Of a stretch of DNA of 64,000 bases, positions 3,035 to 55,680 are shown piece by piece. The notes under the pieces were generated by a model. It saw nothing but the letters and a program-made list of their open reading frames with translations. It did no database searches and was not told the origin of the DNA. A program made the position numbers and the translations under genes. Origin of the DNA: Octopus vulgaris (lineage: Eukaryota); the NCBI GenBank assembly GCA_951406725.2, contig OX597824.1:8618001-8682000 (forward strand). Direction: 5' to 3'. Numbering within the stretch: the stretch's first letter is position 1; each line of letters begins with the position of its first letter.

Positions 3035-3177
3035 GAGCAAAAGAAAAAAAATTCAAAACCAATATTCTGAGAAATAGACTTTAAAGGATCAATCACCACA
3101 TACAATATATTGTATGTGGGGATTGACGATTTAAAGTCTATTTCTCAGAATATTGCTATAGGAATTTTTTATTTTGC

Positions 3178-3224: not shown

Positions 3225-3227
<3 letters not shown>

Positions 3228-3382
3228 TATAGTCAATTATAAAAGGGTAAAACTAATTAATTATTAATGATCAATTTTACCAAATAGTGTTCAGTATGTA
3301 AAAAGACCATTTACGGTGTATTTAAAACATTACGTTATATAATTAGGGTTCTGTAAAATAATTTACCTTACCACACACCGTG

Positions 3383-3385
<3 letters not shown>
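3225..3385 (-). mobile_element. Diverged fragment related to the hammerhead element at 14172-14841
   Basis: Aligns by eye with 14670-14810 (AAGGGT.AAA.TAATTAATT...ACCAA.TAGT.TTC.G.ATGTAAAA...CCTTACCACA.ACCG). Confidence 0.6.
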
Positions 3386-3453
<68 letters not shown>

Positions 3454-13708: not shown

Positions 13709-13713
<5 letters not shown>

Positions 13714-14087
13714 ATATAAACGGCAGTTTGTCTGTGCGTGTTTCTGTGTGTCTGTTTGCTTGTACCCTCACTCTGACCACGGCTTTCAACCGATTCTGAT
13801 GAAACTTGACACACACATAGCCCAATGTCATAATTCAAAACTAAAGCAGCGAAAATTTTGAAAAGTTCACCCAGTTCTGAAAAAAATCGATAAATTCGAC
13901 ATTGGGTCGAGAATCAGAAACACAAACCGCAAACTGTCTAGGGGACGCAACTCCACCTTTTTTTAACTAAAAAAAAATTTACCATCATTTTTTTCCATTT
14001 TTTGGCTATTTTTTGGCTATAACTCTCTAAAAATGCTTTATAGTTATTTCCCTTACAAACCTGAGCAACGCCGGGCGATACTGCTAG
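13709..14087 (+). mobile_element. Non-autonomous Helitron
   Basis: A|TCTCTATATAAACGG...CC(T)GAGCAACGCCGGG CGATACTG-CTAG|T inside (TA)n; 3' end shared with 6929-7313. Confidence 0.85.
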
Positions 14088-14104
14088 TATATATATATAG
14101 GTAT

Positions 14105-14171
<67 letters not shown>

Positions 14172-14173
<2 letters not shown>

Positions 14174-14836
14174 CTAAGCAATAAAGGGTTTGGCAACGAA
14201 TTGCCTTACCACATACCGAATTTAGAAATAGCAGTCAAAGAGTTATAGCTATTTCTTCTACTAAAAAGGGAGATCTCAGTAAAAACAGCAATTGGAAGGC
14301 AGACACAAACAGGTAAGAGGGAATGAATTGACGGCAATCTATCATACAATTTTAAGTTATCTACGGACGTACGTTTCGAAATCAAGTTTTTAGGAAAGCA
14401 TAAGAATTAAATATTAAATAATTCTATCTTACCAAGAACTTCTTTTCTCTTCAGCGTAGATTACTATAATCATAAATGATTATATATTGAATTTTGAGAT
14501 ACTAGAAGGCATCAACTCAACTCAGTATCAGAGCGAGCTAGAATCCGCAACTAGTATCACCAAATTCAATGTGTGAATGAAAAGATTGTGTCACCAGCCC
14601 CTTCCCACCCGCGTGTAGCCAAAACAAGATGCTGTGGTCATCTACTGAGATAAAATATGGTTATCCGTAATAATGAAGGGTGAAATTAATTAATTTGGAA
14701 TAATTATCAATTACACCAAGTAGTCTTCGGCATGTAAAAGCCTCATTCGAGGAAAATTTAAGTAATACTAAGCAATAAAGGGTTTGGCAACGAATTGCCT
14801 TACCACATACCGAATTTAGAAATAGCAGTCAAAGAG

Positions 14837-14841
<5 letters not shown>
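14172..14841 (-). mobile_element. Non-coding hammerhead-bearing element, 594-bp unit plus 76-bp terminal redundancy (retrozyme-like / non-autonomous Penelope-like)
   Basis: 14172-14247 is identical to 14766-14841; internal hammerhead; no ORF; TA-rich microsatellite on both sides. Confidence 0.75.
14359..14461 (-). ncRNA. Type I hammerhead ribozyme
   Basis: Minus strand: ATCTACG-CTGAAGA-GAAA[long stem-loop II]TTTC-GAAA-CGTACG-TC^CGTAGAT; 7-bp stem I, intact core, palindromic stem III, GUC cleavage triplet. Confidence 0.85.
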
Positions 14842-14903
<62 letters not shown>

Positions 14904-14978
14904 ATATATGTATATGCATAGGTATATATATATATATGTATGTATATATATATGTATATGTATATATATATGTATATA

Positions 14979-15027
<49 letters not shown>

Positions 15028-15071
15028 GTATGTATATATATCGAAATAAGCAACAGGATATCAAGAAGTGA

Positions 15072-15157: not shown

Positions 15158-15321
15158 CAAATAAATAGAATTTTAATCAGTTGGACACATTAATATAATT
15201 TTTCTCAAATACTTTAACGGTGCAAGAAGATAGAAGAAATCCATGTTGTCTCTGTAGTAGCTAAGAATAGACTACTAAGATATATATATATATATAAAGA
15301 ATATCGACTTCAGCACGCGAT

Positions 15322-15870
15322 AGGTACTTAATTTATCGACCCCGAAAGGATAAAAAGCAAAGTCGACCTTAGCGGAATTTGAACTCAGAACATAACGGCA
15401 GACGATATACCTATTTTTTTACTACCCACAAGGGGCTAAACACAGAGAGGACAAACAAGGACAGACAAACGGATCAAGTCGATTATATCGACCCCAGTGC
15501 GTTACTGGTACTTATTTAATCGACCCCGAAAGTATGAAAGGCAAAGTCGACCTCGGCAGAATTTGAACTCAGAACGTAAAGACAGACGAAATACCGCTAA
15601 GCGTTTCGCCCGGCGTGCTAAAGTTTTTGCCAACTCTCAGCCTTTCGCCCAGTTTACAATAATAATAATAATAATAATGGTTTCAATTTTTGGCACAAGG
15701 CCAGAAATTTGGTAGGAGGGGATCAGTCGATTATATTGACCCAAGTGCTCAACTGGTACTTTATTTATCAACCCCGGAAGGATGGAAGGCAAAGTCGACC
15801 TCAGTTAAATTTAAGCTCACAACGAAGCGACCGGCGAAATACCGCTAAGCATTTCGTCCAGCTCGCCGCC
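15322..15870 (-). mobile_element. Cluster of SINE family C copies (15322-15650 with internal duplication; 15680-15870)
   Basis: Repeated GGTACTTAATTTATCGACCCCGAAAGGATGAAAGGCAAAGTCGACCTCGGCGGAATTTGAACTCAG-like segments. Confidence 0.85.
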
Positions 15871-42385: not shown

Positions 42386-42810
42386 TAAACACCTCAACAT
42401 ACATACATGTATTCAGACATAAGCACATACCTATATGTAAGCGAGTCTATATATTTGCATTTATTCCCATATACTTTCCAAAGCGTTAGAATATATATTT
42501 ATCCTTATGTGGGCATTGATTAAATATTCTAGGTTTCGTGTCTAGTCAGTTTCAGACATTTCCATTTGTATAAAATGCGTATTTCTATGTTGTGCAATAG
42601 CTGCACTTTCTTGATCTTTTGCCGACTGATCTCAATCTTGCTAGGACTTTATATATGAGGTTTCTAGATGTAGCTGTATATCATCTTGGCATAACTCTTT
42701 CTCTCTTTTTAATGTTTTTAAGGTTCTACAATGGTGAAGAACGTTTGTATTTATCTTGAACCATGGCAATATTATTTCTTTCCCCTTTTCTTTCTCTCTC
42801 TCTCTCTCTG

Positions 42811-42913
<103 letters not shown>

Positions 42914-45044: not shown

Positions 45045-45261
45045 AAGGCGGCGAGCTGACAGAATCGTTAGCACGCCGGGCGAAATGCGTAGCCGTATTT
45101 CGTCTGCCGTTACGTTCCGAGTTCAAATTCCGCCGAGGTCGACTTTGCCTTTCATCCTTTCGGAGTCGATAAATTAAGTACCACTTACACACTGGGGTTG
45201 ATGTAATCGACTTAATTCGTTTGTCTGTCCTTGTTTAGCCCCTTGTGGGCAATAAAGAAAC
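45045..45261 (+). mobile_element. SINE family C with 15-bp target-site duplication
   Basis: ATGGTCACTGCCTAT at 45030-45044 and 45262-45276. Confidence 0.92.
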
Positions 45262-45609: not shown

Positions 45610-45960
45610 AGTTACACATTAGAAGTTCAGATTCGGCTCAAATTGCTGATTTAGTCGGCATATATATACTTCATAAAATGGCCGACCAGTTCCCAGACAT
45701 CTGTGGAGGTCTATATCGTGATGATTGTTTGCTTTACCTCCAAAACATTTCAAATCAAAAAATACAGAAGGTTAAGAATAGATTAGTTAGGTTTTTTCGT
45801 AGAATGGGCTTTCACATCGTTTTTGACGATGAGTTAACTAAAGCTAACTTCTTAGATATTACTCTTAATTTGAAAAAATAACTCATACTTCCCGTACCAC
45901 AAACTTTCCACCTATCTCAAGTATATTAGTCCTTCCAGTAATCACGCTAGGGCACTATAT
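45610..45960 (+). pseudogene. Penelope-like element reverse transcriptase fragment
   Basis: SSDSAQIADLVGIYILHKMADQFPDICGGLYRDDCLLYL...ANFLDITLNLK/NSYFPYHK...YISPSSNH; GLYRDD, FLD and SNH motifs are characteristic of PLE RTs. Confidence 0.88.
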
Positions 45961-55399: not shown

Positions 55400-55680
55400 A
55401 GACAATATGAATGACTCTTCGGACATACCAGTCGGAAGCACATAGCCTCTTATGCGCTGAAGATATATAGACTCTGGCTATATATGGTGATTAAAAGAGA
55501 AGGAATGATCATATATTATCAAGGGAGGTTGTTGGAACAATCTAAACTGTATCTTAATGGTAGAAAGAGATGTAGTCTCTGCCTGGCGGAGAGAAAAATC
55601 TTAAAATTTCTTGAAATTGAAAAGCGAAATTCTCAGGTAGTGTGCTCATGGGCGCAAATTCGTTTTGGCACCATGGTCAT
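55400..55680 (+). pseudogene. Penelope-like GIY-YIG endonuclease C-terminal remnant
   Basis: YIW*LKEKE...LYLNGRKRCSLCLAERKIL...EILR*CAHGRKFVL; the C..C...C.H motif is typical of PLE C-termini. Confidence 0.7.

Follow-up and report, generated by a model that had tools for sequence, protein, structure and literature searches.

A retrozyme-like, non-coding element of Octopus vulgaris with a predicted hammerhead ribozyme and an unusually long stem II arm

A 64,000-nt stretch of the Octopus vulgaris genome (hereafter the window) contains a 594-bp non-coding unit with an exact terminal repeat, inserted in a (TA)n microsatellite. As judged from its sequence, this is a non-autonomous element of Penelope type that resembles retrozymes. 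Its predicted type I hammerhead has an unusual stem II arm of 70 nt, and the unit probably uses the enzymes of Penelope-type retrotransposons (Penelope-like elements, PLEs). Its features are listed in Table 1.

The two copies of the repeated segment are exactly identical over 77 bp, or 76 bp if counted from 14172 as in the initial annotation, and are spaced 594 bp apart. Likewise, the TA-rich setting described initially was recovered, with (TA)n on both flanks. The tract shares an ATA microhomology with the left end of the unit and a TATA microhomology with its right end (14841 side), and no target-site duplication is discernible at either (TA)n junction. In six frames, the longest stop-free stretch of the unit is 66 aa and the longest frame starting with ATG is 36 aa. 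Penelope-type proteins of at least 300 aa (34 of 150 fetched) gave a best tblastn E value of 0.52, leaving the unit without a Penelope-type coding remnant or the reverse transcriptase (RT) plus GIY-YIG ORF of an autonomous PLE, in agreement with the earlier statement that it holds no ORF. The locus amounts to 1.13 units with one hammerhead, i.e. fewer than two consecutive units with a complete hammerhead. Both repeat copies have G (at 14192 and 14786) where A accounts for 87-100% of the depth in four sequencing runs, and the sharing of this minor allele points to one donor template, a pattern that fits a circle and a homogeneous array alike.

Table 1. Coordinates of the features of the unit, its flanks and its diverged relative (positions within the window)
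Feature	Position	Strand	Remarks
Short diverged relative between two (TA)n tracts	3227..3387	-	69% over 153 columns; spans unit junction
Left (TA)n target tract	14088..14171	.	from sequence
First copy of repeated segment	14171..14247	-	putative RNA 3' end and reverse-transcription start
Full 594-nt non-coding unit	14172..14765	- (putative RNA strand)	34.7% G+C; long rod fold, hammerhead as side arm
Type I hammerhead	14359..14461	-	stem I 14461-14455/14365-14359; CUGAAGA 14454-14448
Hammerhead GAAA, stem III and C17	14377-14374; 14374-14367; 14366	-	stem III an 8-nt palindrome
Hammerhead stem II, 4 bp	14447-14444/14381-14378	-	opens with G10.1-C11.1
Stem II extension, 62 nt	14382..14443	-	2x2 internal loop at canonical loop 2 place, then irregular AU-rich hairpin
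Conserved structured block across unit junction	14662..14824	-	helix 14814-14805/14735-14726 and hairpin 14717-14679
Partial second unit, 77 bp exact	14765..14841	-	putative 5'-truncated end
Right (TA)n-rich target tract	14842..15043	.	from sequence

The minus-strand hammerhead is the sole descriptor match in the 64 kb and exceeds chance expectation: none of 20 shuffled windows matched its stem strength (7/4/2) or better, and two of the 20 gave a weaker match. All the parts originally ascribed to it are in place at this locus, namely a 7-bp stem I, a CUGAAGA/GAAA core, a GUC site and a stem III that is palindromic. Cleavage is predicted to fall between 14366 and 14365. Two details of that description changed. 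The stem II arm, put at ∼65 nt, measures 70 nt, with 62 nt between the 4-bp strands. The 7-bp stem I holds for the 594-bp locus but not for the family, because 87-100% of the depth in four runs has another base at 14461, which makes the seventh pair peculiar to this copy and leaves a family stem I of 6 bp. A common variant at 14360, also in stem I, keeps a U-G pair. Stems I and II each lead into a 2x2 internal loop. No variant affects the 19 core positions among the 40 variant rows listed (53 further exist), which is weak evidence with 1.3 expected; three of the 11 listed indels of other copies fall in the stem II extension and none in the core.

Canonical metazoan hammerheads have helices of 6 and 4 bp and a short palindromic helix III (PMC4209133), and reviews tie hammerheads of this size to retrozymes rather than to PLE ends (PMC7761336). 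With helix I at 6 bp in other copies, retrozymes fit better than the minimal hammerheads of Penelope. A type I motif with such a stem II arm was not described in the literature searched, including the accessible text of PMC3088659. The hammerhead models of Rfam, proposed earlier as a check on the motif, gave no match at gathering score on the window, and at E ≤ 10 the unit returned four weak unrelated matches, none of them a hammerhead. This failure is presumably due to the long stem II arm. A relaxed scan of the 64-kb window for minimal hammerheads gave no match. In computed folds, the pair probability is 0.99 for stem I and 0.98 for stem II, with values of 0.98-0.99 both for the motif alone and in the 594-nt circle, whereas stem III of a single motif reaches 0.04. 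Pairing of the 8-nt stem III palindrome between two molecules has a computed energy of -9.8 kcal/mol. A stem III so weak by itself, together with a favourable two-molecule duplex, makes it plausible that cleavage would need a dimer.

We next consider the distribution of the unit in sequencing runs. It is present in 20 of the 24 runs listed (10 studies, four organisms), at 0.60-0.79 of the sampled words; none of these 20 runs is on record as RNA, which says nothing for or against expression, and for X3 and X13 an RNA origin is no more than a guess. Contigs from four runs (X2, X3, X7, and X13) were placed on the unit at 85% likeness. Two DNA runs placed 1576 and 2370 contigs on it, with a summed depth of 10^4-10^6 per bin, which is not a copy number but is far from single-copy. 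When the unit is drawn as a circle, all of its 594 links are bridged by pieces that reach 31 or more letters to either side, and 543 of them are bridged by pieces at least 5% diverged (n = 23), as counted among the 32 pieces listed (4092 further exist), which represent two organisms and several subfamilies. Links 14191-14194, 14271-14279, 14383-14395, and 14442-14466 are bridged by near-identical pieces only, which could be alleles of the 594-bp locus. Under the bridging rule, one piece bridges the junction at 14765 (seven cross it) and two bridge that at 14247 (six cross it), and both repeat junctions were found in diverged copies (X7 record 30, X13 record 1, and X2 record 12). One 372-nt contig covers 14330-14701. 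No contig from the four runs exceeds one unit in length, contigs being by nature unable to show circles, and the table of joints in contigs was empty for all four, with no read-through joint or tandem array seen.

Because the circle is bridged by diverged pieces and the runs come from four organisms, the unit belongs to a multi-copy family and is not a local duplication, as was claimed initially and as far as contigs can show. We are highly confident that this family is ORF-less, with variable ends in microsatellites. The adjective "young", used in the initial annotation, suits the copy at the 594-bp locus; the family also includes members that are 9-15% diverged. In neither DNA run did any of the placed sequence continue into unlike DNA (share 0), and in the other two runs the share was 0.03-0.04. 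Among the 24 loose ends listed of 238, several lead into microsatellite (ahead of 14668 and 14765, or past 14263, 14284, and 14287), most of the others look like divergent variants of the unit, and strongly supported or ORF-like branches are absent. As far as contigs can show, this agrees with the expectation that copies are not contiguous with a PLE ORF. In X2, a depth dip at 14655-14677 carries no weight, ∼80% of the run having been read. In the same run, 13 contigs (agreement 0.58) form a loose end behind 14262 that is similar to the sequence around 14342-14357, a hint that a subfamily shorter by ∼75 nt (14262-14345) may exist. Exact-pattern scans gave 0 and 0 loci in prokaryote genomes; 0 and 4 loci in viral contigs and one in metagenomes were rejected as chance matches, with likeness only over about the length of the pattern.

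These data bear on the view that the unit is the pseudo-LTR of an autonomous PLE, in which case the locus would be a rare ORF-deleted by-product and the depth would come mostly from truncated parent copies. Type I hammerheads do occur at PLE ends, and most PLE copies are 5'-truncated (PMC4209133, PMC8557442, and bioRxiv 10.64898/2026.07.22.740005, as far as their accessible text goes). Moreover, 14678-14765 and 14172-14390 have for the most part a depth several times higher than 14400-14670 in organism A, and a portion of the unit is therefore common to more abundant relatives. Unitigs stop at branch points, and an ORF-bearing parent, although disfavoured, could be missed for this reason. We nevertheless consider this origin unlikely. 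There is no coding remnant in the unit and no strong loose end among the 24 listed, the hammerhead is of canonical size rather than of the minimal PLE type, and 14498-14725, the expected place of an ORF on the model of Poseidon (RNA-downstream of the starts), is bridged by 9-15% diverged pieces in two organisms.

A related fragment within the window provides information on the RNA strand and on the ends of the family. This diverged relative aligns to 14662-14824 (blastn E value 6e-15; alignment score 137, compared with a shuffle maximum of 70) and is devoid of a hammerhead. The two-sequence consensus fold has 30 pairs and -19.3 kcal/mol on the minus strand vs eight pairs and -3.6 kcal/mol on the plus strand. 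When the unit's own fold is taken, eight of 37 minus-strand pairs are broken in the relative where 13.3 are expected (p = 0.02), vs 16 of 37 on the plus strand (p = 0.92). Pair-keeping changes are not in excess (seven, with 8.1 expected), so what two sequences reveal here is conservation of paired positions, not covariation. This comparison lends modest support to a minus-strand RNA with a conserved structure at the junction. A short palindrome at 3059-3157, just upstream of the relative, has no similarity to the unit.

Four observations bear on where copies begin: an X3 contig and the relative both start at ∼14662-14668, and an X13 contig (behind TA repeats) and the 594-bp locus both start at 14765. 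Apparently, there are two internal start points ∼100 nt apart (∼14668 and 14765), and the conserved block, which contains both, is a candidate recognition site for the mobilising enzyme. In a Poseidon PLE, two internal initiation sites explain the "tail" (PMC11167929), although they lie 30-40 nt apart there, and (TA)n targeting has been reported for several PLE clades (PMC8557442). The features of PLE-type insertion, i.e. partial tandem, variable truncation, alternative starts and a microsatellite target, are all present here, as seen in a handful of ends. We therefore hold it very probable that the unit was inserted by PLE-type target-primed insertion from a more-than-unit template.

An event at the DNA level would instead invoke a local 77-bp duplication, or Helitron-like rolling-circle read-through past a terminal hairpin, with an incidental hammerhead. 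A hairpin at 14210-14187, within the first repeat copy, indeed ends ∼13 nt before the left boundary. In addition, the same TA tract is abutted by a segment at 13711-14088 that begins with TC, ends with CTAG before a T, and has a G+C-rich hairpin; by these terminal features, it looks like a non-autonomous Helitron. Helitrons have 5' TC and 3' CTRR termini and fixed ends. The unit itself was rejected as a Helitron, having neither a TC start nor a CTRR end, and its ends are not fixed. A DNA-level event is very improbable when the occurrence of both repeat junctions in diverged copies, the span of the 69% relative across the unit junction, the variable ends and a hammerhead exceeding chance are considered.

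The whole unit is highly structured. The linear minus-strand unit folds at z = -7.9 (100 shuffles), and both strands fold well as circles (z = -5.9 for minus and -5.5 for plus, 30 shuffles), with 16 G-U pairs in the minus vs six in the plus circular fold. Of 40 available control stretches, 14 were folded with eight shuffles each; 13 of these had z between +3.6 and -4.6, and the fourteenth is a long palindrome. Variation among other copies shows no avoidance of pairs in the whole-unit fold: of the 40 variant rows listed, 13 break pairs, with 13.7 and 16.4 expected, and compensating changes could be among the 53 further rows. On the plus strand, T>C outnumbers A>G in X2 (14:6) and X3 (18:9), at p ∼0.01 each although the two are not independent, and in X7 (12:7, p = 0.06), the figures for X13 being 12:16.

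This T>C excess fits G-U tolerance or A-to-I editing of a minus-strand RNA. On the latter basis, a far-reaching scheme may be drawn, in which the unit would be an abundant, rod-shaped, viroid-like circular RNA, probably of octopuses, with a helix I-II contact through the two internal loops and a junction recognised by PLE enzymes with two start sites, and would be A-to-I edited before copy-back, so that editing drives diversification. The excess of RNA-strand A-to-G over U-to-C in two of four runs is in line with editing, but G-U tolerance predicts the same, and we regard this scheme as unlikely.

Candidate partners were sought among the Penelope-type remnants of the window. The RT remnant announced near 45610 is solid at 45612-45893, with 832 relatives at E ≤ 0.001 and a tblastn E value of 7e-28. 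The endonuclease (EN) remnant announced near 55400 fared less well: it has a weak tblastn match (1.5e-4, 55415-55606), a profile E value of 0.09, a best atlas value of 0.85 (unnamed) and no Pfam match. A third, weak PLE-type endonuclease-like remnant lies on the minus strand at 42489-42820 (profile E value 2e-5, tblastn 0.016). Two full-length relatives of the RT remnant show, by eye, an RT core, a cysteine linker and a GIY-YIG-like end, and a layout of RT, linker and GIY-YIG is that of the linker-bearing PLE clades (PMC8557442). Pfam gave a single sub-threshold RT match on nine relatives of the RT remnant and no match on the three remnants, and a word-index protein search with 45612-45893 returned no match. 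No unit-like DNA lies beside the three remnants in the 64-kb window. These remnants show that PLE-type elements are present in the genome, not that they moved the unit.

The initial annotation had read the locus as part of a cephalopod family of self-cleaving, possibly circular-RNA parasites mobilised by Penelope RT. The multi-copy non-coding family, its microsatellite ends, the canonical-type hammerhead and the more-than-unit insertion all stood up to analysis. In a retrozyme-like cycle that would account for them, the minus strand would be transcribed from multimeric copies, two hammerheads would be held together by the 8-nt palindrome of stem III and would cleave behind the GUC at 14366, and the monomer would then be closed by a host ligase into a rod-like 594-nt circle. 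A PLE RT/GIY-YIG protein would then bind the 14662-14824 block and nick a (TA)n tract. The cDNA would start at one of the two internal sites (14171/14765 or ∼14668), pass the cleavage site, proceed once round plus 77 nt and join the tract at the TATA microhomology, giving the 1.13-mer. We give this full sequence of transcription, dimeric cleavage, circle and target-primed copying into (TA)n an even chance. Since the cDNA must have read through the cleavage site, its template was either a circle or an uncut multimer; if insertion was of PLE type, a ribozyme-made circle is the somewhat better candidate. The 594-bp copy itself is probably a dead-end monomer, as it has a single hammerhead whose stem III hardly forms within one molecule.

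The uncut multimer deserves consideration in its own right. The same PLE-mobilised family could spread with no circle, by uncut linear read-through of head-to-tail arrays, the hammerhead being a passenger or protein-dependent. All the DNA evidence fits this equally, including the passage of the cDNA through the cleavage site, and a homogeneous array would also yield identical repeats. In the accessible text of PMC11167929, a PLE hammerhead cleaves only with protein and is dispensable for insertion by a PLE protein in vitro. As reported in bioRxiv 10.64898/2026.07.22.740005, only one of nine Xenopus retrozyme dimers cleaved in vitro while the other eight remained uncleaved, and in our unit the usual loop 2 is lost to the long stem II arm. 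On the other hand, the hammerhead retains an intact core, helices of canonical size and a perfect palindrome, and repeats of like build from coral, mussel and axolotl all gave circles (PMC7229834). The end of one contig (X13 record 3, depth 4.5), whose run is RNA by guess only, falls precisely on C17 (14366), an observation with n = 1 that was made post hoc. Spread without a circle is the main alternative, although the less probable route.

How does the unit compare with described systems? As far as the accessible text of PMC7229834 (Cervera and de la Pena 2020) and bioRxiv 10.64898/2026.07.22.740005 (Li, Clavereau and Pollet 2026) goes, it resembles the animal non-LTR retrozymes in being non-coding with a G+C content under 45%, in its canonical-size type I hammerhead with a palindromic helix III, in a monomer with extensive self-pairing that, in the predicted fold, keeps the arms of the hammerhead intact, and in co-occurring with PLEs, dispersed monomers having also been reported for retrozymes. 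It differs in having one hammerhead at the locus rather than two or more tandem units, in the 62-nt extension that replaces loop 2, and in a (TA)n insertion with no visible target duplication. The preprint defines a retrozyme by at least two consecutive units, each with a complete hammerhead. By that definition, the locus does not count as an active retrozyme in its own right but falls in the "monomer" class, being at most a monomer derivative. The earlier claim that the monomer is larger than typical is right with respect to the tested invertebrate retrozymes (150-450 bp, PMC7229834) but not with respect to the range of 51-972 bp in the preprint, which gives a mean of 650 bp in ray-finned fish.

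The unit is equally reminiscent of the pseudo-LTR or "tail" insertions of endonuclease-bearing PLEs (PMC4209133, PMC8557442, and PMC11167929, in their accessible text), with which it shares a partial tandem, variable truncation, microsatellite targets, a type I hammerhead and apparently two internal starts downstream of the ribozyme. It departs from them in its lack of an ORF or coding remnant and in a hammerhead that is canonical rather than minimal. Chlamys MRC1, as described in PMC8557442, is also a non-autonomous PLE derivative with pseudo-LTR/head-to-tail insertions and a microsatellite bias, although the Chlamys elements come from green algae and mostly have no canonical hammerheads.

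The kind of element is therefore already known. We found no description of retrozymes in octopus or other cephalopods in a search short on subscription journals, repeat databases and supplements, and databases may already contain the family under a different name. The main text of a 2026 repeat annotation of Octopus vulgaris (PMC13282606), in its accessible part, uses neither "hammerhead" nor "ribozyme". Circles of animal retrozymes have been shown in three species and PLE enzymes have been proposed as partners, but one review, in its accessible part, reports finding no conserved motif that would identify the partner of retrozymes. The family described here offers a candidate recognition structure, two mapped starts, a defined (TA)n target and many copies, so that the choice between circle and tandem template can be put to a direct test, as can the question of whether the ribozyme is needed.

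Two further repeats were observed in the window. A near-perfect fold-back element of ∼500 nt at 1729-2233 is MITE-like (z = -39.6 and -17.8). Finally, a SINE-like repeat of 138 nt occurs three times in 15293-15862, its copies being 71-80% alike, and similar sequence is present near 45050-45230.
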